DNA of 64,000 nt from contig JAKLFC010000010.1 in NCBI GenBank assembly GCA_022711405.1, positions 70,349 to 134,348 of the forward strand, given 5' to 3'. The notes beneath the pieces were generated by a model that did not search any database, was not told the origin of the DNA, and worked only from the letters and a program-made list of their open reading frames with translations. The stretch's first letter is position 1. The number at the start of each line of letters is the position of its first letter. The position numbers and the translations under genes were made by a program. Positions 6,095 through 25,414 of this stretch are shown here, in pieces. The stretch comes from Bacteroidota bacterium (GTDB lineage Bacteria > Bacteroidota > Bacteroidia > Bacteroidales > JAGONC01).

Positions 6095-6161
6095 TGAAAT
6101 TTTGGTTATATATTAGTTCAATACGATTATTATAGTTCAATAAAAAAGGGATACATCATCA

Positions 6162-7079: not shown

Positions 7080-7388
7080 TTATTCCATCATTGTATTTAC
7101 TGTATCCAGGTTTTGAGTCTTGTTATCATCCGGAGATGTAAACCAGTAAATAGCATTATGGGGGCATGATGACACGCAAAGTCCGCACGAATCGCATTGA
7201 TCATAGACAATAACATAGTGCACAGGATTACAGGGGACTTGCATGGTAAGGCAATAGCCGATGCATTTCGCACATGCATTGGTTGTTACTTTTTGTATGG
7301 CGGTGGTTGGACACACCGTTATGCACAGATCACATCTTTTACACTTTGATGAATCGATCACAGGGACTGTGAATGAATTCGTTTCCAT
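7080..7388 (-). CDS. 4Fe-4S dicluster ferredoxin-domain protein
   Basis: 102 aa with CKRCDLCITVCP and CDSCGLCVSSCP motifs. It overlaps the upstream ATPase gene by 31 nt. Confidence 0.8.
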   Translation of the reverse strand: METNSFTVPVIDSSKCKRCDLCITVCPTTAIQKVTTNACAKCIGYCLTMQVPCNPVHYVIVYDQCDSCGLCVSSCPHNAIYWFTSPDDNKTQNLDTVNTMME

Positions 7389-9092: not shown

Positions 9093-9528
9093 AGTTCAGC
9101 CGCATCTGCTCTTCAGTCAGTGTTTCTTTAATGGCATTTTCCCAGAAAGGAGTGTCCCAGGAGTGAAGAGTGCTGTGTGTTACCAGGTACTTCTGAGGAA
9201 TAGGATGGGTACCGAAGATCACTTCCAGTCCAAACTTTTCCTTTATGAATTTCTCAAAATATTCCATATACGGGCAGGGAGGATATCCTACCAGAAATCC
9301 TGTGGCGAAATGAACATGCGTTACCCCATTCTTCTTCATTTCAATAAATGCTTGCTCAATATTTCCTCCCGGACAACCTCCACAGGTGGTATACCCGGCA
9401 AGTTCTGCCTCCTTGTCATTATAAACCGAGAAAGCTCCCTCCCGGTTCCGGAATGCCCTGAAGCACTTTCCTCCGGCACACATTCGGTAGCGATCACAGA
9501 TGATGATCCCGATTTTGATTTTTCCCAT
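9085..9528 (-). CDS. CGGC-domain protein
   Basis: 147 aa with CDRYRMCAGGKC and TTCGGCPG motifs characteristic of CGGC-domain proteins. Confidence 0.7.
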   Translation of the reverse strand: MGKIKIGIIICDRYRMCAGGKCFRAFRNREGAFSVYNDKEAELAGYTTCGGCPGGNIEQAFIEMKKNGVTHVHFATGFLVGYPPCPYMEYFEKFIKEKFGLEVIFGTHPIPQKYLVTHSTLHSWDTPFWENAIKETLTEEQMRLNYD

Positions 9529-9542
9529 GGTGTTTCTTCAGT

Positions 9543-9917
9543 TTAATGTCCGCATTTACCATGTTCGTGAGGATGATCATGGTCGCAATAATTGGCACTT
9601 AGGCTCAATTTATTGGCAAGAAAATCATTGACAAGATCCACAGCTGGTTTTATGGGCGCACCCACGAAAGCATTGATCTGATGTTGATTGAAAAGCATGA
9701 TCGCCTGTTGCCCCATGCCTCCGGCGATGACATCAGTAACACCGAACTGAGCAATCCAGCGTGGATACAAACCCGGTATATGTTCCGGGGGTGTGACCTC
9801 CCTAACCTCGGTAATTTTGTTATTTTCAACATTTACGATGGCAAATGCCTGGCAGTGCCCGAAATGGGGGCATAATACCCCGTTTTCCAATGGAATGGCT
9901 ATTCTTTTGTTCAACAT
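9543..9917 (-). CDS. NifB/NifX-family (dinitrogenase FeMo-cofactor-binding-like) protein
   Basis: 124 aa with a HFGHC start region and a GMG...L motif, plus a His/Cys-rich tail (CDHDHPHEHGKCGH). Confidence 0.75.
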   Translation of the reverse strand: MLNKRIAIPLENGVLCPHFGHCQAFAIVNVENNKITEVREVTPPEHIPGLYPRWIAQFGVTDVIAGGMGQQAIMLFNQHQINAFVGAPIKPAVDLVNDFLANKLSLSANYCDHDHPHEHGKCGH

Positions 9918-11172: not shown

Positions 11173-11784
11173 GTGGATGAATCTTCCTCTCAAGAGCAAA
11201 CTACGATCCTTCGCCTGAAGAATATGACGTGCAGTTGCTGTGTCCGTATCGTCAGGCAAGAACTGGAAAAGATTGGGGTAAAGGTGAATTCGGTCAGCCT
11301 CGGCGAGGCCGATATCACCTACGATATTTCTGATCCGGGATTTGATATGATACGGAAGGTACTGGCGGAAAACGGATTTGAGCTTGCCCAGAACAGGGAA
11401 GAAGCCATTGTAGAACAAATCAAAATTGCAGTGATCGAGTTGATCCACCTGTCGAACAACAGCAACTCCATCATCCGGAACTCGGATTACCTGGTGGATA
11501 AGATCCAGCTTTCGTATCAGTACCTTTCCAATCTGTTTTCCCAGCACGAAAAAATGACGCTGGAGAAGTTCATCATCCTGCATAAGATTGAAAAGGTGAA
11601 GGAGCTGATTTCCTATGATGAGCTTACCTTAAGTGAAATTGCTTTCCAGATGGGTTACAGCAGCGTGCAGTACCTTTCGACGCAGTTCAGGAGCGTTACG
11701 GGCTTGTCGGTCACGGAATATAAAAAGGATCCGGTAAAGAACCGGATCCCGCTGGATGATCTGCTGACAAAGGATGAAGAGTAA
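11173..11784 (+). CDS. AraC-family transcription regulator with N-terminal heavy-metal-associated (HMA) domain
   Basis: 203 aa. LRLKNMTCSCCVRIVRQELEKIG is an HMA-type metal-binding loop. The C-terminus (LSEIAFQMGYSSVQYLSTQFRSVTGLSVTEY) is an AraC HTH. Confidence 0.8.
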   Translation: MDESSSQEQTTILRLKNMTCSCCVRIVRQELEKIGVKVNSVSLGEADITYDISDPGFDMIRKVLAENGFELAQNREEAIVEQIKIAVIELIHLSNNSNSIIRNSDYLVDKIQLSYQYLSNLFSQHEKMTLEKFIILHKIEKVKELISYDELTLSEIAFQMGYSSVQYLSTQFRSVTGLSVTEYKKDPVKNRIPLDDLLTKDEE

Positions 11785-11793
11785 CTCGGGTTT

Positions 11794-12576
11794 TTACAGC
11801 GTGGACAGGCACCCGCATCCTCCAAAGCCGGATTCATGTTCTGAGTTGATGATCTCGTCGAAATATTCCTGGCTGATGTACTGAGGAGTATAATCGGCAC
11901 CGCGGAAGACCAGGTTTCTGTAAAACGCACGCAGGTGATTCCTTGAGCCACGCTCCAGGTTTTCAAACACCCAGGTAATGTCCTGGTTGTCCACCACGTT
12001 TTGAAGTAAATTCTGCAAATCAAAAATGTCCATATCCTCTATGGTGGCACCTGCTGTCAGCCCGTCGATAAGGGAATTATCTGCAAGATCAGTGAGTTCA
12101 TTGTACGCTGTCTGTAACTCCTGGTTGATGAACACACCGGGTTGATGATTTTCACCGGGATCCGTCAATTCGTACTTGTCAAGGAGATATTTGACCATGG
12201 TGGTATGCTGCGTTTCACTCTTTGAGATATTATTGAAGATGGGAATCGGATAGAGTGCATATGCAAACACATATACATCCTTTGCCAGCAATTCCTCTTC
12301 ACGCATATGAAGCAATGCCTCTACTTCTTCTGCACTTAACTCCTCGAAGGGAAATGTATCAATACAATTCATTACAGATCCCATCGGGCTCTGTTCAAAA
12401 TTCCCTGTCAGGAGTATGGTTTCCTTTAATTCAGAACTCACAGCATCAGGTGTGCCCACATCAGGTGTCTTACTGCAACCCGGGATCGCCAGGCTTACGA
12501 TGATCAATGCCGGCATTACAAGAATGGAAAAAATTTTTTTCGTTTTCATGACATTTTTTTTAAAGTGATTATTCAA
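11794..12576 (-). CDS. Ferritin-like (DUF2202-type) lipoprotein with Cys-rich C-terminus
   Basis: 260 aa with a lipobox (AIPGCSK) and a duplicated ferritin-like helix pattern (EEELLAKDVY...; ...LERGSRNHLRAF). The tail is GFGGCGCLSTL. Confidence 0.65.
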   Translation of the reverse strand: MNNHFKKNVMKTKKIFSILVMPALIIVSLAIPGCSKTPDVGTPDAVSSELKETILLTGNFEQSPMGSVMNCIDTFPFEELSAEEVEALLHMREEELLAKDVYVFAYALYPIPIFNNISKSETQHTTMVKYLLDKYELTDPGENHQPGVFINQELQTAYNELTDLADNSLIDGLTAGATIEDMDIFDLQNLLQNVVDNQDITWVFENLERGSRNHLRAFYRNLVFRGADYTPQYISQEYFDEIINSEHESGFGGCGCLSTL

Positions 12577-12772: not shown

Positions 12773-13564
12773 ATGAAAAAATTCATTATCATTTTATGGG
12801 CATCCCTGCTTGTTCATCAGGGTGTCTCTCAGGTAAACCTGGAAACGATATATCAGGTTTCAGGAGCGTTGACACAGCTCGAAAAATCAGGGTTCAAATA
12901 CTATGTGATGGATTGGACCAACGTTCAGTGCCGTTTATACAATATGGATCATTCGCTATGGAAGGCGGTCACTCTCACCGTTCCCACCGGCTATTACCTG
13001 TACGATATCCGTTATGTCTCGGAACATCTTTTCAATACGGATGATCTGGTGGAAATGGCCGTTACTTATTTCTATTATGAAGAAGCAGGCCAATACTATA
13101 TCTACGGCAGCAAGATCGTCAATGAACTGGGAGAAGAACTGGTGGTCATCCCAGGAGCTTCTTATTTTCAGGTATATGATGCCGGTGACTATGGCCGGAA
13201 GTTTCTTGCCTATGTCTACGATTATTCGGTTTATCCATATCCGGTTCAGACATGGGTGTACGACCTGCCTGGAGGAGAAAATTCAAACAGCGTCATGAAT
13301 CCGCCAGCTTCCATGGGATTGCCGGCTCCCTATCCTAATCCGGCCAGCTCATTCGTCGTGATAAACGTTGAATTGCCAGACAATCCGACCAATGCTGAAA
13401 TTCAGGTCATGGACCTTCAGGGAAGGATGATTAAAAGCTATCCCATCACCGTTGGGAGTAAAACCTATCAGCTGAATATCAGTATGTATCCAAAAGGCGT
13501 ATATTTGTACCGGATCGTTGCAAATCATTATTGTTCTGAAAGTTTCAAACTGATCAGACAATAA
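12773..13564 (+). CDS. Secreted protein with T9SS C-terminal sorting domain
   Basis: 263 aa with a signal peptide. The C-terminus YPNPASSFVVINV...GVYLYRIV fits the type A Por/T9SS sorting domain. Confidence 0.7.
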   Translation: MKKFIIILWASLLVHQGVSQVNLETIYQVSGALTQLEKSGFKYYVMDWTNVQCRLYNMDHSLWKAVTLTVPTGYYLYDIRYVSEHLFNTDDLVEMAVTYFYYEEAGQYYIYGSKIVNELGEELVVIPGASYFQVYDAGDYGRKFLAYVYDYSVYPYPVQTWVYDLPGGENSNSVMNPPASMGLPAPYPNPASSFVVINVELPDNPTNAEIQVMDLQGRMIKSYPITVGSKTYQLNISMYPKGVYLYRIVANHYCSESFKLIRQ

Positions 13565-13610: not shown

Positions 13611-13859
13611 ATGAAATTAAAGGAAAACATCGCCATCAGTGATTCAGGATACCTCTTCAATCCTTCCACAGGTGAGTCTTTCGTTCTCAATCCCCTGGGT
13701 ATGGAAGTTTTACAGTTCGTGAAAAAGGGAAAATCCTTCGAAGAAATATCAAAGGAGGTCCTGACCCGGTACAGTGTGGATTCCATTACCTTCGAGAAAG
13801 ACTACCAGGATTTCATACACCAGCTCAGGCAGTATCTGTTAATCGGCAGCGATGAATAA
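13611..13859 (+). CDS. PqqD-family small protein (RRE-like peptide/adaptor-binding fold)
   Basis: 82 aa. The pattern ...GYLFNPSTGESFVLNPLGMEVLQFVKKGKSFEEISKEVLTRY... is the typical PqqD-like layout (beta-strands followed by a winged-helix). The stop overlaps the ATP-grasp start. Confidence 0.65.
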   Translation: MKLKENIAISDSGYLFNPSTGESFVLNPLGMEVLQFVKKGKSFEEISKEVLTRYSVDSITFEKDYQDFIHQLRQYLLIGSDE

Positions 13860-14898
13860 GAAAAGGGTAACGGTGGGCATCTCAGGGCTGAACGCCATCG
13901 ACAGCCCCGGGCCCGGGATGGCGGTAGCCATGGGCCTTCACGAAGCCAGATCATTGGATGTAAGGATCATTGGCCTTGCGTATGAATCGCTGGAGCCGAT
14001 GATCTACATGCACGACCTGGTCGACAGGACCTACCAGCTGCCGTATCCATCCTCCGGAAGCGATATGATCCTCTCAAGGCTTGAATACATTCAGGAGATG
14101 GAACACATCGATGTGATCATCCCCAATTTTGATGCGGAACTGTATTCTTTCATGAAGATCGAGCCCCAGCTGAAGAGAATGGGCATCCGCATGTTCCTGC
14201 CTGCTATGGAACAGTACGAGGAGCGGCATAAAGTGAATCTGTCCAAATTCGGTGAAAAATATGATATTCTTGTGCCCCATGGCAAGGCGGTCTTTGAACC
14301 CAAAGAGGTGTTCGATATCAAATCGGAGTTTACCTTTCCGCTGCTGGTAAAGGGTAAATGGTACGATGCCTATATTGCCTACAACATAGAGCAGGTGCTG
14401 ACCTGTTTCAATAAGATCAGTGCCAAATGGGGCCTGCCCGTGATCCTTCAGAAATTCGTACATGGCTCTGAGTACAATGTAACGGGACTTGGTGACGGCG
14501 CCGGTACCACGGTGGCTGCCGTGGCCATGCGCAAGCAATACATCACGGATAAGGGAAAAGCGTGGGCGGGGATCTCCATCGACGATACGTACCTTCTTGA
14601 ACTCACCCGCAAGTTTGTTACTGCAACGAAATGGCGCGGTGCCTTTGAACTGGAGATGATCAAGACCCAGGATAATAAATATTACCTGCTGGAGATCAAT
14701 CCTCGTATACCGGCATGGACATACCTTGCCGTGGGAGTCGGGCAAAACATCCCGGAAGCCCTGGTGAGGCTCGCCCTGGGGTTGAAAGTCCAGCCTTACG
14801 AATCCTATGATGTGGGAAAACTCTTCATCCGGTACTCCAAAGACATGATCGTCGACCGGGAGGAGTTTGAAAAACTCTCGATGACCGGTGAATTGTGA
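13852..14898 (+). CDS. ATP-grasp carboxylate-amine ligase
   Basis: 348 aa with the LLVKGK, ILQKFV.G.EY and ELEMI...YLLEINPR motif order of ATP-grasp enzymes. Confidence 0.8.
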   Translation: MNKKRVTVGISGLNAIDSPGPGMAVAMGLHEARSLDVRIIGLAYESLEPMIYMHDLVDRTYQLPYPSSGSDMILSRLEYIQEMEHIDVIIPNFDAELYSFMKIEPQLKRMGIRMFLPAMEQYEERHKVNLSKFGEKYDILVPHGKAVFEPKEVFDIKSEFTFPLLVKGKWYDAYIAYNIEQVLTCFNKISAKWGLPVILQKFVHGSEYNVTGLGDGAGTTVAAVAMRKQYITDKGKAWAGISIDDTYLLELTRKFVTATKWRGAFELEMIKTQDNKYYLLEINPRIPAWTYLAVGVGQNIPEALVRLALGLKVQPYESYDVGKLFIRYSKDMIVDREEFEKLSMTGEL

Positions 14899-14955: not shown

Positions 14956-16302
14956 ATGGAAAAACAACGATATGAACGACCGATCCTGAAAAAACTGGAA
15001 ATGGGCATGCCCGGTAAATTCGGCGTAGCTGCCAACCTGCCTCCCACTACCCATATTGACGGGATCTCCGTAGACTCGCTGGTGGAAACCTACGGCTCAC
15101 CCGTGTTCATCCTGTCCGAGAAAACCATTCGTTCGGTTTTCAAAAGAGCAAAAAAAGCATTTACAACCCGCTATCCCAAGGTCCAGTTTGCATGGTCCTA
15201 TAAGACCAATTACCTGAATGCAGTGTGCAGGATCTATCATCAGGAGGGTTCCTGGGCTGAGGTCGTTTCAGGATTTGAATACGATAAAGCGATCGCCAAT
15301 GGAGTACAGGGACAGCACATCATTTTCAACGGCCCGGATAAATCGGCGATATACCTGGAAAAGGCCATCCGTAACGATTCCATCCTTCATATTGACCACC
15401 TGGATGAACTGTACACGATCATTGAGCTTACCGAAAAACTGGCGAAAAAGCCGAAAGTGGCCATCCGGGTGAACATGGATACTGGCATACAACCCATGTG
15501 GGACCGCTTTGGATTCAATTATGAAAACGGCCAGGCCTGGGACGCCCTCAACAAGATCATGCATTCAGGAAAACTGGATCTGGTGGGGCTTCACACCCAT
15601 ATCGGGACGTTCATCATGAGCCCGCAGGCCTATGGAGTCGCTGCCCAGAAACTTGCCGATCTTGCCATCGGGATCCGGCAGAAGTACAACCATACGATCA
15701 AATACATCGACATGGGAGGCGGCTTTGCTTCAGCCAATACCCTCAAGGGATTCTATTATCCGGGCAGCGACACCAATCCCACGTTTGATGACTATGCGGA
15801 GGCCATCACATCGGCATTGCTGAACACACAGTTCACACCGGATAATCTTCCCCTGCTGATCCTGGAGACCGGCAGGGCCCTTATCGATGAGGCCGGCTAT
15901 CTTCTTGGAACCGTCATCGCCAATAAAAGACTCTCTACCGGTAAACGGACCACGATTGTCGACATTGGCATCAACCTCCTTTTCACTTCTTTCTGGTACG
16001 AACATAAACTCACCCCCGCACGGCATTATTCACAGTACACGGAAGCAACTACGGTATATGGTCCCCTGTGCATGAATATCGACGTTATCAGGGAAAATGT
16101 CAACCTGCCGTTGCTGAACAAAGGCGACCATTTTGTCATCCATCACGTGGGGGCATACAATATGACCCAGTGGATGCAGTTTATCACCCTGCGGCCCAAG
16201 ATCGTCCTGATCGATCAGGACGGTACTGCCCACGTGATCCGCGAAAATGAAACCATGGACAATGTGATGAACATGGAACACCTTCCCGCCCATCTGAAAT
16301 GA
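14956..16302 (+). CDS. PLP-dependent decarboxylase, Orn/DAP/Arg decarboxylase (alanine-racemase fold) family
   Basis: 448 aa with FAWSYKTN (PLP lysine), HTHIGT, MGGGF and a C-terminal beta-barrel with GAYN. Confidence 0.85.
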   Translation: MEKQRYERPILKKLEMGMPGKFGVAANLPPTTHIDGISVDSLVETYGSPVFILSEKTIRSVFKRAKKAFTTRYPKVQFAWSYKTNYLNAVCRIYHQEGSWAEVVSGFEYDKAIANGVQGQHIIFNGPDKSAIYLEKAIRNDSILHIDHLDELYTIIELTEKLAKKPKVAIRVNMDTGIQPMWDRFGFNYENGQAWDALNKIMHSGKLDLVGLHTHIGTFIMSPQAYGVAAQKLADLAIGIRQKYNHTIKYIDMGGGFASANTLKGFYYPGSDTNPTFDDYAEAITSALLNTQFTPDNLPLLILETGRALIDEAGYLLGTVIANKRLSTGKRTTIVDIGINLLFTSFWYEHKLTPARHYSQYTEATTVYGPLCMNIDVIRENVNLPLLNKGDHFVIHHVGAYNMTQWMQFITLRPKIVLIDQDGTAHVIRENETMDNVMNMEHLPAHLK

Positions 16303-18506
16303 CCCGGATCATGAGCCGTATCAAAGCCCTTTTCACCAGCTTTATACGAGGCATACTCAATAGCTATGCACAGGTCTTCTTTTCTAACCACAGCCTGTTT
16401 GCCGTTTTTCTCATCCTTGTCTCTTTTTTTGATATCTATGCGGGTATTACCGGCCTGATGTCAGTGATCATATCCAATACCGCTGCTTACCTGATCGGCT
16501 TCAACCGGACTTTCATCAGAAGGGGATACTACGGATTCAATAGTCTTTTAGTTGGCCTGGGTCTGGGTATCTTCTATCAGCCCTCGGTCGAACTCTGGCT
16601 GCTTGTTTTCTTTACAAGCCTGCTGACACTTCTGCTCTCTGTCATGCTGGAGGGAGTCATAGGGAAATATTACCTGCCGTATCTCAGTGTCCCGTTCCTG
16701 CTGGGGATATGGATGGTCATGCTTGCTTCGCGCAGGTTTGAGGCACTCGACATAAGCGAACGCGGCATCTATATGTTCAATGACATGTATGCGCTGGGAG
16801 GCCTGAATCTGGTCAAAGTTTACGACTGGTTCACCCGGCTTGCACTGCCCGATTCGCTGGAGGTCTATTTCCGATCCCTGGGTGCCATCTTATTTCAATA
16901 TCATCTATTTGCAGGTATGCTGATCGCTCTCGGACTGATCATTTACTCGCGCATCGCTTTTGTGCTGTCGTTGGCCGGCTATTACCTGGCCTATATGTTC
17001 TTTCACCTGTTTGGAGGAGATTTCACCACCCTCAATTACTCTTATATCGGATTCAATTTTATTCTCACCTCCATCGCCGTCGGTGGATACTTCATTATCC
17101 CATCACGCTACTCTTACCTGTGGGTGGCCCTCCTCACCCCCCTGACCATTATTGTGATCATCAGTGCCGGAACCCTGTTCTCCATTTTTCAGCTTTCCAT
17201 TTATTCATTGCCCTTTAATGTCATCGTTCTCTTGTTCCTGTACATTCTGAGATTCCGGGAGAGAAACCTCGGATCTCCCCAGCTGGTGGTGGTGCAGCAT
17301 TTTTCCCCGGAGCGGAACCTCTATTCACACCTGAATTATTCCGGCCGGTTCAATCCTGCTTTACCCGTGAACCTATCACTGCCCGTTTTCGGAGAATGGA
17401 AGGTGACCCAGGGTCACCGGGGCGAGCATACCCATCAGCATGACTGGCAGCACGCCTGGGACCTCGAAATAGTGGATGAGGAAGGCCATGCATACAGCCG
17501 TTCAGGGAAAGAACCGGAGGATTTTTATGCCTATGGTAAACCCGTTGTCGCCCCTGCTGATGGCTGGGTGGAACAGATCCAGGATGGAATTGACGATAAC
17601 GCGGTCGGCGAGATCAACACGGTGCAGAATTGGGGAAATACGATCGTCATTCGACATACGGACTCCCTTTTTACAAAGCTCAGTCACCTCAGAAAGGGAT
17701 CGTTCAAGGTCAAAGAGGGAGAGCAGATAAAGAAGGGGGCACTGCTTGCCCAATGCGGAAATTCAGGGCGCTCACCGGTACCCCATGTTCATTTCCAGGT
17801 CCAGAATGAGCCGTACATCGGAGCTCCTACCCTGGAATATCCATTAAGCCATATTGTTCATCATGCGGAAGACAGGCAATGGCTGGTTGCCTGGGATGTC
17901 CCTGTCAAAAATGACCTTATCTCCAATATCGACCGTCATAAAGTGCTGGAAAATGCCTTTCATTTTGTTCCCGGCCAGTCGCTCCTGATGAATGTCAGCG
18001 AGCAGGGTTCCCCCATGCGTCAGGAAATGCTGGTGGTCAAAGTGGATTCTTTGAACAATCAGTATATTGAATGTGAAAGGTTTGGCGCCAGGGCTTTTTT
18101 CAGGAATGAGGACAATGTGTTCTATTTTACCGGATATTCCGGATCGAGACGGTCGGTGCTCTATTATTTTTTCCTCGCCCATTTTAAGGTGGTCAAAGGA
18201 TTCTACTGCAACATGTCCATAGAAGACCCAATCCCTGTCGATCTTTTTCATAACCGAGTCCTGTTGTTTTTCCAGGATCTGGTGGCACCTTTCTTTATTT
18301 TTATTAGTTCAATGTACACACTTTCATATACCCGCATACAGGATCAGCTGTCATCCCCTGTCATCACCCTGAATGCTGCATGCGAAGCAAGGACATTAAA
18401 ATCGTCATCCGGTCACATGGATTTCGAGACCCGGATCGATGAAAAGGGGATCAAGGAATTCAGGGTGATCAGAAAAAACCGCGTCATGGAGGTAACATGC
18501 ATCTGA
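16299..18506 (+). CDS. Fusion protein: urea-transporter-like polytopic membrane domain + M23 metallopeptidase domain + C-terminal domain of unknown function
   Basis: 735 aa. The first ~330 aa are about 10 hydrophobic helices with a urea-transporter-like N-terminus (ILNSYAQVFFS). The middle has M23 signatures (HTHQHDWQHAWD ... GNSGRSPVPHVHFQV). The start overlaps the decarboxylase stop (ATGA). Confidence 0.7.
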   Translation: MTRIMSRIKALFTSFIRGILNSYAQVFFSNHSLFAVFLILVSFFDIYAGITGLMSVIISNTAAYLIGFNRTFIRRGYYGFNSLLVGLGLGIFYQPSVELWLLVFFTSLLTLLLSVMLEGVIGKYYLPYLSVPFLLGIWMVMLASRRFEALDISERGIYMFNDMYALGGLNLVKVYDWFTRLALPDSLEVYFRSLGAILFQYHLFAGMLIALGLIIYSRIAFVLSLAGYYLAYMFFHLFGGDFTTLNYSYIGFNFILTSIAVGGYFIIPSRYSYLWVALLTPLTIIVIISAGTLFSIFQLSIYSLPFNVIVLLFLYILRFRERNLGSPQLVVVQHFSPERNLYSHLNYSGRFNPALPVNLSLPVFGEWKVTQGHRGEHTHQHDWQHAWDLEIVDEEGHAYSRSGKEPEDFYAYGKPVVAPADGWVEQIQDGIDDNAVGEINTVQNWGNTIVIRHTDSLFTKLSHLRKGSFKVKEGEQIKKGALLAQCGNSGRSPVPHVHFQVQNEPYIGAPTLEYPLSHIVHHAEDRQWLVAWDVPVKNDLISNIDRHKVLENAFHFVPGQSLLMNVSEQGSPMRQEMLVVKVDSLNNQYIECERFGARAFFRNEDNVFYFTGYSGSRRSVLYYFFLAHFKVVKGFYCNMSIEDPIPVDLFHNRVLLFFQDLVAPFFIFISSMYTLSYTRIQDQLSSPVITLNAACEARTLKSSSGHMDFETRIDEKGIKEFRVIRKNRVMEVTCI

Positions 18507-19843
18507 AGACGTTTATCATCTCCGTACTTGTTTTATCGTCTGTCTGCCTGTATGCGGAGGATCCTCCAGACTTCGTGGAGGTGGACACGACCACCTATGG
18601 GTATTACGCCAGAAAGCAATGGAATGAACTGGTCGAAGCAGGGAACAGGTATCTGAAGTATGGATTTGATTACTATTACCTCAGGATGCGGATCGGAGTG
18701 GCTCATTATGAGCTGCAGAACTATATCAGGGCAGCTGACCATTTCACACGGGCGTTGAAATTCAATGAAGGAGATACTGCTGTACTTGCTCTGTTATATT
18801 ACTCCTATCTTCAGCTCAACAGGACAGATGCTGCTGACAGGGTACTGGGTATGCTGCCTGTGGAAGAAGCCCGGAAATTCCGGTCGGGAAAGTTCAGCTT
18901 CCTGGAAATGGTCTACCTGGAGACCGGTCCACTGATCTCTTCGGGAACGTCGGACAACAGCCGGATGAACCTGGATGGAACCGATGATGTCTATGGAGAG
19001 ATCGATCACCTGATCAGAAATTCATATTACAATGGATTGGGACTTGTGACAAGGCTTGCTCCCTCCGTGAGACTGCAGCTAAGTTATATGGATCTCTTTC
19101 AGGGCAGGACTGCCCAGGTGATGACAGGCGATTCCCTGATCTTTGACAAGGATCACTCCCTTCAGCAGCACCAGTTCTACATCAGCCCATCTTTCCGCTT
19201 TGGAAAGGGATTTTCGGTGATACCTGCCTTTCATTACCTTGACATTACCTACGACCAGCTGCATGTTCAGTACAGTCAGGAAACAAAGAATTATTCGTTT
19301 GATATGGACACCGTCCATCAGAGGGATTACCTGGCGTCCCTCTGCCTGAACAAGGACCTGTCACTGGTGAGCCTGACGCTGACAGGGACGTACGCAAGGC
19401 TCAACATGTTCGATCATTACCAGGCGGAAATTGCCCTCACGTATTACCCCAGGGGAAACCTGGATTTTTATTCCCAAACCATCGGACGGTATATTCATGG
19501 AAGGGAAGACCACTTCCATTTTGCCGAAACTGCCGGGCTGAAGATCAGCAAGGGATTGTGGATGGAAGTATCGGCCACGTTCGGGGAAGCGGCCGAGTTT
19601 TTTGAAAAAAACGGGTACATTGTGTATAACCTGCCTGAGGACATGTTGTTGAAATGGGGTTTCCAGCCCTATTACCAGATCTCGGATCGGTTGCTTGTCA
19701 GTGTGAAATATGAGAACCTGTATCGGGAAAGCAGGTTTCTGCAATATGATTATGAAGAGAATTCAGGGCAGTACCTGCAGGTATATAAACCATTCACGTA
19801 TCATCAACATCTCATCATCGGAATTTTAAAATTGAACCTATGA
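18497..19843 (+). CDS. Secreted envelope protein with N-terminal TPR-like region (possible outer-membrane barrel)
   Basis: 448 aa with a signal peptide. It has TPR-like helices near the N-terminus and an alternating aromatic/polar pattern in the C-terminal two-thirds. It overlaps both neighbours. Confidence 0.45.
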   Translation: MHLKTFIISVLVLSSVCLYAEDPPDFVEVDTTTYGYYARKQWNELVEAGNRYLKYGFDYYYLRMRIGVAHYELQNYIRAADHFTRALKFNEGDTAVLALLYYSYLQLNRTDAADRVLGMLPVEEARKFRSGKFSFLEMVYLETGPLISSGTSDNSRMNLDGTDDVYGEIDHLIRNSYYNGLGLVTRLAPSVRLQLSYMDLFQGRTAQVMTGDSLIFDKDHSLQQHQFYISPSFRFGKGFSVIPAFHYLDITYDQLHVQYSQETKNYSFDMDTVHQRDYLASLCLNKDLSLVSLTLTGTYARLNMFDHYQAEIALTYYPRGNLDFYSQTIGRYIHGREDHFHFAETAGLKISKGLWMEVSATFGEAAEFFEKNGYIVYNLPEDMLLKWGFQPYYQISDRLLVSVKYENLYRESRFLQYDYEENSGQYLQVYKPFTYHQHLIIGILKLNL

Positions 19844-20463
19844 GCAATTTGCGTAAATTAACGGGACTGGTCCTGCTGGTGATCATGCTCCCGGCCATGA
19901 ACAGGGCACAGGATTACCCTGCGATGCAGCAGGCCTTTGGTACGAGCTACAGCTATGAAAACAAGGGAGAGTATGCCAAAGCCATTGAAGAACTGAAAAA
20001 GATCTATCTTGAAGATTCCTACGAAATCAACATCCGGCTGGGCTGGTTGTCGTATTTAGCCGGGGCGTTCACCGAGTCGTCGGCCTACTACGAAAGGGCC
20101 ATTGCACTGATGCCCATGTCGATCGAAGCCCGGATGGGATTTGCCCTTCCCTCATCGGCCATGGGCAACTGGACGCTCCTCATTAAACGATACGAAGAGA
20201 TCCTTTCCATTGACCCGAACCATTCCATAACGAACTACCGGCTGGCCTCCATCTATTACAACCGGAAGGAGTATCAGAAAGCCTTTATCTATCTTGAGAA
20301 AATTGCCAACCATTATCCGTATGATTATGATATTGCAATCCTGTTTGCATGGACCAATTATCAGCTCGGAAAACTGCGGGAAGCTAAGGTGTTATTCAAC
20401 AAGGCCCTTTTAATCAGACCACTGGATGGTTCTGCGCTGGAGGGACTGAAGCTGATCCAGTAA
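19840..20463 (+). CDS. Secreted TPR-repeat protein
   Basis: 207 aa with a signal peptide and repeated A..Y..A. TPR patterns. Confidence 0.65.
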   Translation: MSNLRKLTGLVLLVIMLPAMNRAQDYPAMQQAFGTSYSYENKGEYAKAIEELKKIYLEDSYEINIRLGWLSYLAGAFTESSAYYERAIALMPMSIEARMGFALPSSAMGNWTLLIKRYEEILSIDPNHSITNYRLASIYYNRKEYQKAFIYLEKIANHYPYDYDIAILFAWTNYQLGKLREAKVLFNKALLIRPLDGSALEGLKLIQ

Positions 20464-20475
20464 TCCGGTGGTATG

Positions 20476-21171
20476 TCATCCTGTAATGCTGATGCTGATC
20501 AGTTTTTCCTTATTGAGGATACTGAAATCAAGCCCTTCCACAGCCAGAATGCCGCTATCCTTGAATTCTTTGATGATCCTTATAGCACTTTCTTTGGTCA
20601 TGGCTGACAGGTCAGCAATATCCTGCCTGGAAAGCTCAGTGTGGAACGAATCGGTGCCATAGACATGGTTGGAAAGGTAGAGCAGCGTTTCTGCCAGCCT
20701 TCCCGGCATCTGCTTCATGGTCAGGGTGACCATACGGTCAAAATTTTCGATCATCTGTTTATTGATCATTCTCAGCAATTCGAAGGCAAACTGGTTGTTC
20801 CGGATGATCGTTTTATTGAACGCTTCAATATCGATCAGGCATGCATAACAATCTGTGATGGCTCTGACCGAGTAATGCAGTTTATTGTCGACAAACAGGC
20901 CAGGTCCGGACGCTATTTCAGTGGGTTTCAGGATACGCAGAATCAGCTTGCGTTTACGCAGGCCCTCGATGTAAATGTTCGCCGATCCTTTGGTAAGGCA
21001 GACAATATGTGTCAGAGGGGCTCCCTGTTTCAGAATGATCTCACCTGCGTTAAAGCTTACCTCGTGCCGGTTCGCATCCATCATGCATAGTTCATCATCA
21101 GTGAGATGATTGAACAGAGGTATCTTCCAGTGACAGGAACTGCATGATAAACGATTGATAAATTCAGGCAT
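20476..21171 (-). CDS. Crp/Fnr-family transcription regulator with N-terminal Cys cluster (FNR-like)
   Basis: 231 aa with N-terminal CSSCHWK...C, a cNMP-binding-like barrel, and a C-terminal HTH (RQDIADLSAMTKESAIRIIKEF). Confidence 0.8.
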   Translation of the reverse strand: MPEFINRLSCSSCHWKIPLFNHLTDDELCMMDANRHEVSFNAGEIILKQGAPLTHIVCLTKGSANIYIEGLRKRKLILRILKPTEIASGPGLFVDNKLHYSVRAITDCYACLIDIEAFNKTIIRNNQFAFELLRMINKQMIENFDRMVTLTMKQMPGRLAETLLYLSNHVYGTDSFHTELSRQDIADLSAMTKESAIRIIKEFKDSGILAVEGLDFSILNKEKLISISITG

Positions 21172-21233
21172 ATCGGATGATCAACTTTCTTTTACAAAGA
21201 TTATTAAATCTTCTGTAATAAATCAATAGTTTG

Positions 21234-21247
21234 TTGATATATATCAT
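21234..21247. promoter_or_regulatory. FNR/CRP-type box TTGAT-ATAT-ATCAT in the divergent promoter region
   Basis: Read directly. It matches 9 of 10 half-site positions of TTGAT-N4-ATCAA. It lies in the AT-rich 196-bp gap between the fnr-like gene and the cytochrome operon. Related ATATATCA(A/T)T words recur at about 21261 and 21283. Confidence 0.3.
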
Positions 21248-21367
21248 TATAATTATATAGATATATCAATAAATCCTTATTATATATCATTCATAACAGA
21301 TTTATATGTAAATATATTTATAGTAATATTGGTCATTATTTCAAACTTACCTTAAAATTTCTTCATT

Positions 21368-22426
21368 ATGAAAAGAAAGGGATTCTTGACATTTTTAATG
21401 TCTGCCTTTGTGGTCGCTGTTTTTGTGATGTCGGGATGTACCAAAGAAGGTCCTCCGGGCCCTGCGGGTCCCAAAGGGGAAGACGGGATCAACGGTAACG
21501 ATGGGACAGTAGGTTGCATCCAGTGCCATAATTCGGATCAGACATTAGCAGCACTCACTATGCAGTGGGAGTACTCGGTTCACGCTACAGGAGGAAATTT
21601 TGAAAGGAATACTACTTCCTGTGCGCCGTGTCATACGAGCCAGGGCTTTCTGGAACGAATGGCCGCAGGAACCCAGGTCACAGCCGAAGACATTGCCAAT
21701 CCCAATCCCCCCAATTGCTACACCTGTCATAATATTCACAAGACCTACACGGTCGATGACTGGGCTCTTACGTACGCAGATCCGATAACCCTCTGGTATC
21801 CTGCCGGAGCAGAGGCAGTGGATTATGGAAAGGGGAATATTTGCGGCAACTGCCATCAGGCAAGGATCGTCAACCCGGTACCGGTTCCCGGAAGCGGTGT
21901 TACCTACAAGTTGACGAACAGCAGGTATGGCACACACCATTCTCCTGTGGCTAACATGCTGGCAGGATTGGGTGGTTATGAAAAGGAAGACTACGATAAC
22001 TCCCCTCACGGATCACTGGTAGAGGACGGATGCGTCACCTGTCATATGGCTGATGCGTACGGCTGGCAGGCAGGAGGTCATACAACAAAAATAGAATATG
22101 ACTATCACGGTTCCATCGAAGTCAATTTTGCAGGATGTACCACCTGTCACAGCGATGAGGATAAGCTTGCAACGGAACTGGAAGAAATCCAGACGGAAAT
22201 CGCAGGCATGATCGACAACCTACGCACGATCCTCAAGGACAGGGGGTATCTGGGCGATGATGACCTTTTCCTGGCCTCCAGTGGCTCGCCCCTGAACCTG
22301 ACTGCAGATGAACTGGGTGCCTGTCTTAATTTCCAGATGGTCCTCGAAGATAAAAGCAATGGGGTTCATAATTATCAATATTCCAAGAAACTGCTTGAGG
22401 AATCCATTTCCGATTTAAGCAAATAA
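21368..22426 (+). CDS. Hexahaem c-type cytochrome lipoprotein with collagen-like Gly-X-Y linker
   Basis: 352 aa with a lipobox (MSGC) followed by GPPGPAGPKGEDGINGNDG. Six CxxCH motifs: CIQCH, CAPCH, CYTCH, CGNCH, CVTCH, CTTCH. Confidence 0.85.
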   Translation: MKRKGFLTFLMSAFVVAVFVMSGCTKEGPPGPAGPKGEDGINGNDGTVGCIQCHNSDQTLAALTMQWEYSVHATGGNFERNTTSCAPCHTSQGFLERMAAGTQVTAEDIANPNPPNCYTCHNIHKTYTVDDWALTYADPITLWYPAGAEAVDYGKGNICGNCHQARIVNPVPVPGSGVTYKLTNSRYGTHHSPVANMLAGLGGYEKEDYDNSPHGSLVEDGCVTCHMADAYGWQAGGHTTKIEYDYHGSIEVNFAGCTTCHSDEDKLATELEEIQTEIAGMIDNLRTILKDRGYLGDDDLFLASSGSPLNLTADELGACLNFQMVLEDKSNGVHNYQYSKKLLEESISDLSK

Positions 22427-22510
22427 AATTAGAAAAGAAGGAATACACATGGCTTCATCAAGCGATGCCTTCCTTTTACTATGATAGCCTTCTTTCAAAA
22501 TACCCATGCG

Positions 22511-22891
22511 ATGAAAAAAATTCTGATTGTCCCGGTGCTGATAGGACTTGGCTTGCTGCTTCTCCTTACTTCCTGTGAATATGAGTTCATTGATTCCGAA
22601 CCTGAATCCTCCGACACTGCGAACGTTTCTTTCAAAACGGATATCCTGCCCATCTTCAACACCAACGACAACTGCACATCCTGTCATAAAACAGGATTTA
22701 CTCCTCCTGATCTGACGGAGTCCAATGCGTACAACAGCATCATTTCCACCGGTCTGGTTGATCTTGCAACACCAAAGAACAGCAAGATCTACAAAGTACC
22801 CGGTTCATCCGATCACGCCTGGAAGTCCTATACACAATCACAAAGTTCCAAAGTGTTGAACTGGATCAACCAGGGTGCTCCGGACAATTAG
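22511..22891 (+). CDS. Small monohaem c-type cytochrome-domain lipoprotein
   Basis: Start chosen at MKKILIV (residue 11 of ORF 22481..22891). It has a lipobox (LLTSC) and DILPIFNTNDNCTSCH, typical of the ILPI...CxxCH cytochrome domain. Confidence 0.7.
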   Translation: MKKILIVPVLIGLGLLLLLTSCEYEFIDSEPESSDTANVSFKTDILPIFNTNDNCTSCHKTGFTPPDLTESNAYNSIISTGLVDLATPKNSKIYKVPGSSDHAWKSYTQSQSSKVLNWINQGAPDN

Positions 22892-22919
22892 CCAATTAAC
22901 GTTTAATCCTGTACAGATC

Positions 22920-23795
22920 ATGAAAAAGCTGGGCATCTATCTGATCATATCTCTTCTGATCGTCACTCTGGTCAAAGGCCAGGACTCGGTACCGGTCCAA
23001 AAGGACAAACCCATCCGGTCACCTTTTGAAAGCGGAATGCTGATTGACAATGAGACCATGGTGATCCCGACGGCAAAAACGCTTGAACTGGTCATCCAGC
23101 ATCGCTTTGGAGAAATGAGCAACGGCATGGAGGATTTTTACGGCATCTGGGCTCCCTCTAACATCCGGCTGGGTTTCAATTACAGCATACTGAATACCCT
23201 GATGGTGGGCGTTGGCACTTCCAAAGATTACCGTCTCCAGGATTTCCGTATGAAATACAATCTGCTTCAACAAACCCGTTCCGATAAAATTCCCCTGAGT
23301 ATCACCCTGTATGGCAATTTTGCCATCGATGCCCGAAATCAGGATGTATTCGAAGGGTACTCGAGTCCTTATGAGTTGATTGATCGTTTCTCCTATTTTG
23401 GTGAACTAATCCTCACCCGGAAATTTTCAGATATCTTTACGTTACAGTTATCCGGAAGTTTCTCCCATATCAACAAAGTGCCCGAAGGAATTGAACATGA
23501 TAAAATAGGTCTTTCCTTTGCAGGAAGGTTTAAAATTTCTCCGCAGTCTTCCATCCTGTTCCAGTATGACATTCCGCTTGACTGTGAAAAAATGAAAGAA
23601 AACGCAGTGCTGATGAATGTTAAGCCCAATTTTGGAGTTGCCTGGGAAATTGCCACGTCCTCTCATGCCTTCCAGATAACCCTCAGTTCAGCAAAACTTC
23701 TGAGCCGTCAGTATGATATGATCTATAATGAATATGACTGGACAGAAGGAGATATCATGCTGGGATTTAATATGACACGCCTGTGGAGCTTCTAA
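22920..23795 (+). CDS. Putative outer-membrane beta-barrel protein (DUF5777-like)
   Basis: Start chosen at MKKLGIYLI, with a signal peptide. About 290 aa with alternating-residue strands and a terminal aromatic (...MTRLWSF). Confidence 0.55.
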   Translation: MKKLGIYLIISLLIVTLVKGQDSVPVQKDKPIRSPFESGMLIDNETMVIPTAKTLELVIQHRFGEMSNGMEDFYGIWAPSNIRLGFNYSILNTLMVGVGTSKDYRLQDFRMKYNLLQQTRSDKIPLSITLYGNFAIDARNQDVFEGYSSPYELIDRFSYFGELILTRKFSDIFTLQLSGSFSHINKVPEGIEHDKIGLSFAGRFKISPQSSILFQYDIPLDCEKMKENAVLMNVKPNFGVAWEIATSSHAFQITLSSAKLLSRQYDMIYNEYDWTEGDIMLGFNMTRLWSF

Positions 23796-23848
23796 TGGGG
23801 CACTTTATTTACTAACAGAATGAATTTTTATTTTTAAATGATACGACT

Positions 23849-24274
23849 ATGAAAAACAAAAATCTTTTAACAGTGGCAGTTGTATTCCTGGGGGCACTCC
23901 TGCTGGTTGCATTCACGATTCCTCAGGATCAGAAGAAGGGTGGTCCCTGGAACATACCTGACAAGTACAAAACCATGAAGAATCCCTATACAGGGAATGC
24001 TGATTTGACCAATGTCGGTAAAATGCTCTATGCCAAACATTGCAAAAGCTGTCATGGCAACGTGGGACTTGGAGATGGCCCCAAGGCTGCGACCCTTGCC
24101 ACAAACTGCGGTGATTTATCTTCAGCCACCTGGCAGAAAGCCAACAGTGACGGTGCCCTTTATTACATGTCCATTATCGGCAGGGATGAAATGCCCAATT
24201 TCGAAAGCAAGATCCCTGAAGAAGAAGACCGCTGGGCAGTCGTTAACTTTCTCAGGACACTGACGGCCAAGTAG
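23849..24274 (+). CDS. Class I monohaem cytochrome c
   Basis: 141 aa with a signal peptide, CKSCHG, and a distal Met region (GRDEMPNF). Confidence 0.85.
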   Translation: MKNKNLLTVAVVFLGALLLVAFTIPQDQKKGGPWNIPDKYKTMKNPYTGNADLTNVGKMLYAKHCKSCHGNVGLGDGPKAATLATNCGDLSSATWQKANSDGALYYMSIIGRDEMPNFESKIPEEEDRWAVVNFLRTLTAK

Positions 24275-24313
24275 CAACGGTTAATTGACCGATTATGGTG
24301 CTTTTTCTGGCTC

Positions 24314-25414
24314 TTGCCGGATCAGGCACCTTTCCGTTTATTGTCAGAAAGCTTAAAAAGAGGAATCATAGTGAAAAGCCATTTGATTACTGGCCTGATC
24401 CTTATCATCAGTCCTGGCATTTTTGCACAGGAGCCGGGTAGCAATCCCGCCCCTAAATTTGTGTCCGAAAATATAGAATGTCTTCAGTGTCACGGCAGAA
24501 AAACGTATTTTTACCACAATGAATGGACGGATATGATGGTGAAGGAAAGGATGAATCCTTATTACATCATTGACTCGGCATTGTTCTATGCATCTAATCA
24601 CCGGAATTTTAAATGCACGGACTGTCATTCGTCTGAATATCAATCATTTCCTCATTCGGGTTTGCTGAGAATGGAGCTCGGCTATACCTGTATGGATTGT
24701 CACGGTGGAGATGAGAATTTTGCAGATTTTCAATTTGAAAGGATCGAGGAGGAATTTATCCACAGCGTCCATTCGACACGACACAGCGAAGATTTCACCT
24801 GCTGGATGTGCCATAATCCTCATACGTACCGCATCAGCGCCAGAAGGGACCTCATCCCTGATGTAGTGGCCTATGATAATGAGATTTGTCTGAGCTGCCA
24901 TGCCAACATCAATAAATTCCAGCTTTTAACGGATAAAATAAATCCCGGTATCCTGGAAAAGCATGAATGGTTACCCAATCAGAAACTGCACTTTTTAAGT
25001 GTGAGATGCATTGAATGTCATGCTGAACAGGAAAACGACATGCTGGTGGCCCATAACATAAAATCAAAGGAAGAAGCCGTCAGACTCTGCGCAAACTGCC
25101 ACTCACAGAACTCACTGCTGTTCACTTCCCTCTATAAGTACCAGCTTAAGGAGAGCCGCCGTGAAAAAGGATTCCTTGCTGCAATGGCTTTACAGTGGAG
25201 AAAAAATAACCTGATTACAGCAATGGATTCAATAGCAGAAGTCAATGATAGGAATGAATCCACCGATGGATCCGTTGCATCTGTCGTCCCGCCTTTTATC
25301 ATTGGTTCCGGAAGCAATCCCCTGATGAACCTGATCAGCCTGATCCTGTTCTTTTCGGGGCTCCTGGCAGTTATGGTCCATGTCATTTTACGTATCATCT
25401 ATAAAACAAGCTGA
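24314..25414 (+). CDS. Heptahaem c-type cytochrome with C-terminal membrane anchor
   Basis: Seven CxxCH motifs (CLQCH, CTDCH, CMDCH, CWMCH, CLSCH, CIECH, CANCH) and a hydrophobic C-terminal helix (LISLILFFSGLLAVMVHVIL). Confidence 0.8.
   Translation: MPDQAPFRLLSESLKRGIIVKSHLITGLILIISPGIFAQEPGSNPAPKFVSENIECLQCHGRKTYFYHNEWTDMMVKERMNPYYIIDSALFYASNHRNFKCTDCHSSEYQSFPHSGLLRMELGYTCMDCHGGDENFADFQFERIEEEFIHSVHSTRHSEDFTCWMCHNPHTYRISARRDLIPDVVAYDNEICLSCHANINKFQLLTDKINPGILEKHEWLPNQKLHFLSVRCIECHAEQENDMLVAHNIKSKEEAVRLCANCHSQNSLLFTSLYKYQLKESRREKGFLAAMALQWRKNNLITAMDSIAEVNDRNESTDGSVASVVPPFIIGSGSNPLMNLISLILFFSGLLAVMVHVILRIIYKTS

Follow-up and report, generated by a model that had tools for sequence, protein, structure and literature searches.

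A urea-transporter-fold channel fused to a predicted cytoplasmic M23 metallopeptidase in a conserved six-gene operon of Bacteroidota

Introduction

Channels of the urea transporter (UT) family are pictured as stand-alone passive urea pores, and M23 metallopeptidases as extracytoplasmic wall hydrolases or as degenerate regulators. The M23 enzymes that have been characterised work on the outer side of the membrane, at the cell wall. Here we describe UT-M23, a single 735-aa protein in which a UT-fold channel is followed by a linker, an M23 metallopeptidase domain and a beta-rich C-terminal domain. Its gene lies at 16299..18506 (+ strand, ATG start) of a 64,000-nucleotide stretch of DNA from a Bacteroidota bacterium (GenBank assembly GCA_022711405.1, contig JAKLFC010000010.1, positions 70,349 to 134,348 of the forward strand), which we refer to as the window. 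We find that UT-M23 is an obligate three-domain inner-membrane protein and the membrane hub of a conserved six-gene operon. In this setting, our tentative reading is that it cleaves an amide bond and that a small product passes by way of its pore.

The closest described systems give several points of comparison. UT-B crosses the membrane ten times, keeps its N- and C-termini inside the cell and has an extracellular loop that separates its two repeats (PMC5700210), and dvUT, UT-B and UT-A2 all carry Leu, Thr, Leu and Thr at the middle (Sm) site of the selectivity filter (PMC4357013). The M23 family signature consists of the motifs HxxxD and HxH, and the degenerate, regulatory LytM domains have lost their catalytic and metal-binding positions (PMC8416486). 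The architecture of UT-M23 is already visible in databases under automatic names, either "urea transporter" or, from the Joint Genome Institute (JGI), [quoted passage not shown]. Full-text searching, with most subscription journals not covered, found no paper on the fusion or on its operon.

Results

UT-M23 has the three parts that an initial annotation of the window had proposed from the sequence alone. Pfam UT (PF03253) matches residues 17-316 over profile positions 2-290 of 292 (E=3.5e-60; 204 bits against a cutoff of 25), which removes an early doubt as to whether the N-terminal domain would score as a urea transporter in profile searches. Peptidase_M23 (PF01551) matches residues 411-503 (E=6.1e-17; 62 bits, cutoff 28.7). 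A sequence search of the PDB with UT-M23 recovered dvUT (3k3f/3me1, E~2.6e-19), human UT-A (5e-23), UT-B and many M23 enzymes. The AlphaFold2 model, built with 57 homologues, has a mean predicted local distance difference test (pLDDT) score of 79.7, with values of ~90 in the M23 and C-terminal domains, and the folds assigned to it by Foldseek bear out the division made by Pfam.

The fused form is the rule among relatives at every distance sampled. Searching 5.8 billion proteins for full-length relatives gave 2869 matches, the best 120 of which are all 718-744 aa long and contain both Pfam domains; within these 120, every match with an organism name comes from a Bacteroidota metagenome-assembled genome (MAG). 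The nearest relatives of the window protein, at 77-78% identity, are found in Lentimicrobiaceae MAGs. At least 559 GTDB species (one genome per species) encode a relative of UT-M23, and we retrieved 80 of these loci for inspection. In most of the 80, a single tblastn segment extends over almost all 735 residues, and the shorter segments stop at contig ends. When residues 340-735, which hold the M23 and C-terminal domains, were used as the query against 1.84 billion cluster representatives, 605 clusters (50% identity) matched at E<1e-30, nearly all of them ~700-750 aa long and matched from about residue 330. The 43 shorter matches inspected begin within the transmembrane helices or the M23 domain and are gene fragments. 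No credible stand-alone M23 plus C-terminal protein or other architecture appeared in this search: apart from fused proteins and fragments, it returned just two longer proteins, in which the frame runs on into the downstream tetratricopeptide repeat (TPR) genes. The concern that the fusion might be an assembly, frameshift or read-through artefact, with separate genes in close relatives, is rejected, since thousands of independent assemblies, reaching to ~31% identity, show the same architecture. The fusion is obligate and old. Conservation was measured as the mean top-residue frequency in 106 family representatives that are mutually no more than 50% identical.

The channel domain (residues 14-317; 16338..17249, + strand) is predicted to comprise ten transmembrane helices and two pore helices, with both termini inside. 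In Foldseek, its model matches dvUT (3me1/3k3f) with target-normalised template modelling (TM) scores of 0.77-0.84, and the wider set of dvUT, UT-A and UT-B at E~1e-11 with target TM scores of 0.72-0.84, which corresponds to the UT fold of two inverted five-helix repeats, each with a pore helix. The two UT signature segments (LPxxTxPF type) read LPYLSVPF and YSLPF in UT-M23. Profile, sequence and fold searches are thus in agreement that the N-terminal domain is urea-transporter-like, as first annotated.

Mapping the 12 filter positions onto UT-M23 through a HMMER alignment from the dvUT residue list (PMC4357013) gave seven identities to dvUT (Q25, V26, F80, L129, L84, L256 and F199). The inner site (Si; Q25, V26, F80, L129) is unchanged, with V or I at position 26. 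At the Sm site (L84, S130, L256, S303) both Leu residues are retained and dvUT T130 and T294 are replaced by Ser, changes that are invariant in close relatives of UT-M23. The outer site (So; A196, I197, F199, Y302) retains F199, and dvUT E187, V188 and L293 are replaced by Ala, Ile and Tyr/Phe, respectively. Conservation of the selectivity filter had been proposed as a check, and relative to dvUT it is kept in seven positions and altered in five. Across the representatives, the 12 filter positions have a conservation of 0.65, compared with 0.44 for the remaining UT domain, and only 5 of 10000 random draws of 12 positions reach 0.65. This excess suggests that the pore is under selection and argues against a pure anchor, which weakens the alternative, raised in the initial annotation, of a channel repurposed in that way.

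UT-M23 is not a Yut equivalog, scoring 129.4 bits with the Yut equivalog model TIGR03441, below its cutoff of 274.6. Because of this score, and because two kinds of filter residue differ from those of every urea channel compared, urea is an unproven candidate for the permeant, which may be another molecule. We also considered the periplasmic loop at residues 145-186 as a docking site for TPR proteins and dropped it, as the loop is conserved in close relatives only and is largely absent in distant ones.

The initial annotation had left it to the topology to decide whether the peptidase faces the periplasm. UT homology and charge bias place it, with good support, on the cytoplasmic and not the periplasmic side, and the predicted location of the C-terminal domain is the same. 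The mean number of lysine plus arginine residues (K+R) in the 106 representatives is 9.0 in the predicted inside loops and 0.43 in the four short outside loops (2.3 for the outside loops once the long loop is counted), and inside exceeds outside in 106/106. Hydropathy analysis of UT-M23 detected no hydrophobic segment beyond the last UT helix (residues 304-323), and the sole later peak, at 662-664, falls where the model has a helix and a loop within the soluble C-terminal domain.

Two metagenomic relatives of 71-73% GC offer a further view of the topology. In these, the UT-M23 reading frame runs through a signal-peptide-like hydrophobic stretch ("...WVGVALLALAAC..." and "...LLALALTLLPAALAAQ...") into a TPR-barrel protein (L082, 10001-13918; 1305 aa, in a cluster of 12 members of which 10 are full-length at 1305 aa) or a TPR protein (L083, 8326-11187; 953 aa). 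Since the TPR proteins have signal peptides when unfused, the two fusions fit a cytoplasmic C-terminal domain followed by a periplasmic TPR part. The internal segment is signal-peptide- or lipobox-like, and the product is either processed there or retains the segment as an eleventh transmembrane helix.

The M23 domain (residues 361-510; 17379..17828, + strand) was delimited from Pfam, Foldseek and residue conservation. It is the most conserved part of the protein (0.60, compared with 0.44 for UT, 0.36 for the linker and 0.34 for the C-terminal domain), and its model matches the LytM domains of DipM, EnpA, StM23 and EnvC with TM scores of ~0.65-0.76. The M23 core and its HVH motif (H496 and H498, both invariant) stand as initially annotated; the H-x3-D motif read in HQHDWQHAWD does not, as that segment holds no H-x3-D and the first motif is H379-x8-D388. 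D388, H463, H496 and H498 are kept in 106/106 representatives and H379 in 105/106. H385, three residues before D388 (H-x2-D), is kept in only 41/106. In an alignment made with a profile of the domain, "...NWGNTIVIRH...KLSHL...GNSGRSPVPHVHFQ" corresponds at each residue to Campylobacter Pgp3, zoocin A, LytM and ShyA, which identifies H463 as the predicted catalytic His and H496/H498 as the HxH motif. These three residues align to Pgp3 positions for which Ala mutant structures are deposited (6jn7, H216A; 6jmz, H247A).

UT-M23 thus has the HxH motif and the catalytic His of the family, and departs from the canonical HxxxD spacing. An insertion of ~20 aa (residues 389-413) also separates the Asp strand from the "KPVxAPADG" strand. 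The M23A enzyme LasA reportedly also has a long spacing between His and Asp. H-x8-D is probably a spacing variant and not a loss, with the predicted metal-ligand set retained. With its predicted catalytic residue set complete, the domain does not resemble the degenerate regulatory LytM domains. It departs from the family in its predicted location as well, since the K+R bias, the intracellular UT C-terminus and the absence of a later transmembrane segment do not fit the extracytoplasmic position typical of M23 enzymes.

Between the channel and the peptidase lies a cytoplasmic linker (residues 318-360; 17250..17378, + strand), which has low confidence or is disordered in the model and carries the motif FSPExNLY..RF. 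At least 95% of the representatives share the linker residues P337 and E338, and the motif could be a docking peptide. The C-terminal domain (residues 511-735; 17829..18503, + strand) includes a conserved QDxxAPF motif (659-665). A Pfam search with these last ~225 residues was empty at E<=1, in line with the first description of the final ~200 residues as having no recognisable motif. Modelled separately (pLDDT 75), the domain folds as an all-beta half-barrel with two helices, and its best Foldseek matches are LolA, LprF, YmcC-like proteins and RseB/MucB, all weak (E 1.4e-3 or worse, TM 0.3-0.38). A LolA-like domain that possibly binds a hydrophobic ligand is suggested by the model as a lead only.

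UT-M23 is the fourth gene of a translationally coupled operon of six genes on the same strand, and four of the five junctions between them overlap in the window. The first three encode a PqqD-family small protein of 82 aa (13611..13859, + strand; Pfam PqqD 41.8 bits, cutoff 23.4), the end of which overlaps the start of an ATP-grasp ligase of 348 aa (13852..14898, + strand; Pfam ATPgrasp_Ter and ATP-grasp_3), and a pyridoxal phosphate-dependent decarboxylase of the alanine racemase fold (14956..16302, + strand; 448 aa), which is closest to FigC/FslC N-citrylornithine decarboxylase. The UT-M23 start overlaps the decarboxylase stop (ATGA), and at its other end it shares 10 nt with the start of the gene that follows. 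This fifth gene encodes a secreted TPR and probable outer-membrane beta-barrel protein (18497..19843, + strand; 448 aa) with a signal peptide, N-terminal TPR and a C-terminal beta-signal, and the sixth a secreted TPR protein of 207 aa (19840..20463, + strand) with a signal-peptide-like N-terminus. The six genes occur in the same order, at ~50% identity, in nearly all of the 80 GTDB loci, and also in two distant high-GC contigs, where the TPR genes are placed or fused differently. The two downstream TPR genes are present wherever the GTDB contig reaches far enough.

The beta-signal of the barrel protein, ...IGG(I/L)xWK(L/F), ends in L or F in 64/70 loci. The 207-aa TPR protein has a signal-peptide-like N-terminus in 67/71 loci, always adjoins other genes of the set and is fused in frame to UT-M23 in one high-GC relative. 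Together, the beta-signal and the signal peptides support an envelope-spanning system. No homology of the barrel to known exporters was found by sequence.

Among the enzymes, the decarboxylase has the clearest affinities. Its PDB matches are FigC (7kh2, E=8.5e-57), diaminopimelate decarboxylase (DAPDC; 8e-39) and BtrK (1e-26), with lysine/ornithine decarboxylase at only ~1e-11. By closest similarity it falls in "clade 2" (FigC, SbnH, AcsE, MccE, BtrK and DAPDC); it scores below the NCBIfam lysA and FslC cutoffs. The members of this clade are unrelated to polyamine synthesis and, except for DAPDC and D-ODC, they decarboxylate conjugated amino acids, carried on citrate, on a peptide-nucleotide or on an 87-aa carrier protein (PMC7857480, which also names BtrI, BtrJ and BtrK). 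The decarboxylase is 66-76% identical in most loci, compared with ~50% for UT-M23.

A single-sequence PDB search with the ATP-grasp ligase returned no match. In a profile search its nearest structure was 2pn1, a single-domain, carbamoyl-phosphate-synthase-like protein from structural genomics, followed by carbamoyl phosphate synthase, biotin carboxylase and PurK/PurD. These matches hint at a branch that activates bicarbonate or small acids, a hint that we judged too weak to use. The 82-aa protein scored below the cutoffs of the NCBIfam lasso models and of the other PqqD models in NCBIfam. We rejected a role for it as a covalent carrier of the LysW or acyl carrier protein type, as its terminal residue is variable and it has no invariant DS(L) or terminal Glu motif.

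L006 (a related locus, as are the others so numbered here) carries an extra 278-aa gene of the IF-2B family (PF01008) between decarboxylase and UT-M23 at 9019-9855, and extra spacing of ~900 nt between the same two genes is found in nine loci (L006 together with L015, L016, L018, L020, L022, L031, L066 and L069). The PF01008 family includes eIF-2B subunits and phosphosugar isomerases. Two genes upstream of PqqD, the window encodes an AraC-type regulator (HTH_18; 11224..11784, + strand; 186 aa), a possible regulator of the operon. In 14/47 related loci (L038, L030, L051, L035, L025, L064, L014, L039, L062, L037, L026, L073, L063 and L072) a protein of ~200 aa with a C-terminal HTH sequence of the same type is encoded directly upstream of PqqD, and its C-terminal 40 residues are near-identical across them. 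A DUF2202 ferritin-like secreted protein is encoded at 11794-12576 (- strand), between the AraC gene and the cluster, and homologues of it occur 3-10 kb upstream of UT-M23 in L002, L046, L074, L077 and L081. Directly upstream of PqqD, at 12773-13564, lies an apparent type IX secretion cargo gene, and genes that likewise appear to encode such cargo occupy the same place in at least 7/47 related loci (L001 3309-7106, L006 3690-6221, L018, L022, L048, L054 and L074). Pfam detected Por_Secre_tail in the window protein and in that of L001, and the other loci were judged from C-terminal sequence only. The proteins are otherwise unrelated in size. This adjacency may be due to chance, as such genes are abundant.

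Farther from the operon, positions 4904-7040 encode, on the opposite strand and ~8-10 kb upstream of the decarboxylase, a DapA-family dihydrodipicolinate synthase and a pyridoxal phosphate enzyme of Cys/Met metabolism. Two tandem genes for P-loop NTPases of the MinD/ParA/NUBPL type, each with an inserted pair of 4Fe-4S ferredoxin motifs, occupy 7358-9092. Downstream, a Crp/Fnr-type regulator gene (20476-21171, - strand) precedes a run of plus-strand genes that extends to 26036. The run encodes a multihaem cytochrome c with MtrC/MtrF-like domains (21368-22426, + strand), a DUF5777 membrane beta-barrel (22920-23795, + strand) and a second multihaem cytochrome (24533-25414, + strand), as well as small open reading frames (ORFs) bearing CxxCH, and the region 20476-26036 looks like an outer-membrane electron-conduit module. 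No tRNA or tmRNA genes were found by ARAGORN in the whole window.

Discussion

There is good support for the architecture of UT-M23, for its topology and for its place in the operon. That cleavage is coupled to passage we infer from the fusion and from the neighbouring genes, and the direction of flux, the identity of the permeant and the chemistry are likewise proposals. The scheme that we tentatively favour, with somewhat less than even confidence, is "cleave-and-release" export at the mouth of the pore. The PqqD protein would hold a peptide or carrier, and the ATP-grasp enzyme would form an amide bond between an amino acid and a carboxylate or amine on it. The decarboxylase would strip the alpha-carboxylate that is still free on the added residue. 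From its position beneath the pore, the M23 domain would hydrolyse an amide bond to give a small, largely uncharged amide or amine fragment, which would exit the cytoplasm through the UT pore and be handled in the envelope by the TPR and beta-barrel pair. Given four cytoplasm-facing activities, a pore on the same polypeptide and two exported partners, "ligate, decarboxylate, cleave, pass" would be the simplest scheme that uses them all. More broadly, the system could represent an undescribed envelope-spanning pathway in which a small amide or amine leaves or enters by way of a UT-fold pore, having been freed by a cytoplasmic M23 zinc amidase from a conjugate made by the PqqD, ATP-grasp and decarboxylase proteins; we regard this as possible but rather doubtful.

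Several observations weigh against cleave-and-release export. The filter of UT channels is a narrow slot for urea-sized planar molecules (PMC5700210), so any product must be very small, whereas M23 enzymes normally act on peptides. The channel itself carries no information on the direction of flux, and the filter residues are kept less strictly in the most distant members of the family. The geometry between the domains of the model is uncertain (predicted TM score 0.60; linker pLDDT <50). At least 5 of the 80 loci lack an adjacent PqqD, ATP-grasp and decarboxylase trio, so that the two halves of the operon can be unlinked and might not share a pathway. The genes upstream of UT-M23 in these loci are unrelated housekeeping genes (LpxD, HD, UvrB and EEP), and we rejected them as substitutes for the missing enzymes. 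The C-terminal tail of the PqqD protein is acidic and its last residue is variable. [quoted passage not shown] The small-ORF families shared most widely were PqqD itself and ORFs that, from their position and strand, are shadows within the large genes.

The same components could instead serve the membrane-anchored editing of a lipid-linked or membrane-proximal peptide, with the UT fold acting mainly as a trimeric platform. The cytoplasmic M23 domain would cut a non-standard bond in a lipid-linked peptide (for instance an undecaprenyl-phosphate peptidoglycan precursor or a lipopeptide) at the inner leaflet, and the LolA-like domain would hold the lipid tail. The ATP-grasp enzyme and decarboxylase would modify the same peptide, for instance by adding ornithine, lysine or diaminopimelate and decarboxylating the added residue so that a diamine amide results. 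Recognition of the altered product in the envelope would fall to the TPR and beta-barrel proteins. M23 enzymes specialise in bonds of the peptidoglycan type (those closest to UT-M23 are Pgp3, MepM, ShyA, zoocin A and LytM), and the M23 domain is the part of UT-M23 that has changed least. Every one of the top structural matches of the C-terminal domain (LolA, LprF, RseB/MucB and YmcC-like) is a half-barrel that binds lipid, FigC-type enzymes decarboxylate N-acylated ornithine, and the ATP-grasp ligase has weak matches to D-Ala-D-Ala ligase and pseudomurein ligase. However, a filter under greater constraint than the remaining UT domain is unexpected for a pure scaffold, the resemblance to LolA is slight (E~1e-3, TM 0.3-0.38, nothing at E<=0.001), and no peptidoglycan-synthesis genes consistently adjoin the operon among the examined loci. 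We consider peptide editing rather unlikely.

Flux in the opposite direction is distinctly improbable in our estimation. A small amide or peptide-like solute would cross the outer membrane by the TPR beta-barrel and diffuse in through the pore, and the fused M23 domain would destroy it and so keep the gradient inward, with the ATP-grasp enzyme and decarboxylase then processing the products of hydrolysis. Fusing a channel to a cytoplasmic hydrolase is the simplest route to vectorial facilitated diffusion. The pore is conserved, the predicted cytoplasmic peptidase has intact catalytic residues, a dedicated outer-membrane barrel is present, and an AraC-type regulator often adjoins the genes, as in catabolic operons. 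To our knowledge, however, no M23 enzyme hydrolyses an amide of the size of urea. An ATP-consuming ligase and a PqqD chaperone are biosynthetic and not catabolic features, the decarboxylase clade is tied to the synthesis of specialised metabolites or lysine, and no urease or amidase genes were seen among the window ORFs scanned. The logic would be that of UreI with cytoplasmic urease, where urea enters H. pylori through UreI and is hydrolysed in the cytoplasm (PMC3863980). A genuine urea, ammonia or water channel, gated by the M23 and beta domains as a regulatory plug or sensor that responds perhaps to a peptide from the neighbouring enzymes, has only a slim chance of being correct. The full-length UT match, the seven filter residues shared with dvUT and the database annotation as urea transporter would suit such a channel, and the long flexible linker with its conserved motif could dock in the vestibule or in the peptidase groove. 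Yet the five catalytic and metal residues are invariant in 105-106/106 representatives, unlike those of degenerate LytM domains (PMC8416486), the score is far under the Yut equivalog cutoff, the filter changes are absent from the urea channels compared, and the scanned window ORFs show no urease genes nearby. Hardly credible, finally, is a conventional periplasmic peptidoglycan endopeptidase of the MepM/NlpD type on a urea-transporter anchor, or two genes joined through an error of assembly or a frameshift. The JGI name includes MepM/NlpD and the homology to M23 is genuine, but the K+R bias in 106/106 representatives, the intracellular UT termini and the lack of a transmembrane segment past residue 323 stand against a periplasmic enzyme, and the many independent assemblies with an identical architecture, at identities as low as ~31%, exclude an artefact.

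If cleavage and passage are indeed coupled as in cleave-and-release export, UT-M23 would represent a new way of making passive transport vectorial and would extend the M23 fold to cytoplasmic substrates. It would be the first "hydrolase-coupled passive channel" and the first cytoplasmic catalytic role for this fold, and would imply an undescribed small metabolite or envelope modification in the Bacteroidales, Marinilabiliales and Lentimicrobiaceae of sediments and digesters, with a secreted metabolite widespread among anaerobic Bacteroidota. Independently of the mechanism, a UT channel and an M23 peptidase are welded together in at least hundreds of species, with an intact M23 site on the wrong side of the membrane for work on the wall. 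The automatic names "urea transporter" and "MepM/NlpD" are probably misleading when nitrogen-cycle and cell-wall functions are deduced from metagenomes. The cluster is also present in a MAG that bears the name of a described species, Draconibacterium orientale, and genetics and exometabolomics may be feasible there.

Compared with the known UT/SLC14 channels (dvUT, Yut, UT-A and UT-B), UT-M23 has a full-length Pfam UT domain with a TM score of ~0.8, keeps the Phe and Leu residues of the slot and the inner Gln, and, by homology, shares the ten-span topology with both termini inside. It differs in being always fused to ~400 cytoplasmic residues, in never adjoining urease genes in the examined loci, and in its filter, where Thr is replaced by Ser twice at Sm, the outer Glu/Gln by Ala and L293 by Tyr/Phe. 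With the M23 enzymes (LytM, lysostaphin, MepM, ShyA, Pgp3 and zoocin A) it has in common the fold, H463 and HxH, and the predicted ligands D388 and H379, whereas H-x8-D, the ~20-aa insertion past the Asp, the lack of a signal peptide and the predicted cytoplasmic location set it apart.

Other systems resemble UT-M23 and its operon in arrangement. Outer-membrane TPR and beta-barrel components serve export in PgaA, BcsC, AlgK/AlgE and Slam. Our operon similarly has one gene for a TPR protein that is secreted and one for a TPR beta-barrel that ends in a typical beta-signal, with faint TPR_Slam matches, but no sequence homology to these barrels was detected, and the operon is without a polysaccharide synthase or lipoprotein cargo gene. 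In the butirosin (BtrI/BtrJ/BtrK) and rhizoferrin (FigA/FigC) pathways, the likeness lies in a decarboxylase similar to FigC, DAPDC and BtrK that follows a protein of ~85 aa and an ATP-dependent ligase of the kind that forms amides or thioesters. The genes BtrI, BtrJ and BtrK reportedly run in the order small protein, ATP-grasp, decarboxylase, which the UT-M23 operon would mirror. Unlike these pathways, the small protein of our operon has a PqqD/RRE fold and is not an acyl carrier, with no conserved phosphopantetheine-type or C-terminal Glu site, and the ATP-grasp ligase has no close characterised relative.

Peptidase-containing ATP-binding cassette transporters (PCATs) have a C39 peptidase fused to the exporter. 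Like them, UT-M23 joins a cytoplasm-facing peptidase to a membrane conduit near a peptide-maturation gene, here of the PqqD family. In contrast to PCATs, its conduit is a narrow passive channel, not driven by ATP, that would serve a small molecule and cannot pass a peptide, its peptidase is a zinc M23 and not a cysteine C39 enzyme, and a precursor gene was not found, so that the likeness would be one of logic and not of homology. In H. pylori, urease associates with UreI at the membrane. A small-solute channel there works together with a cytoplasmic metallohydrolase (PMC3863980), as may be the case in UT-M23. The channel fold and the enzyme are unrelated to those of UT-M23, which combines both functions in one polypeptide and has neighbours of a biosynthetic character. 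The nearest functional analogies, all of them partial and non-homologous, would thus appear to be the PCATs, the BtrI/BtrJ/BtrK and FigA/FigC pathways, and UreI with urease.

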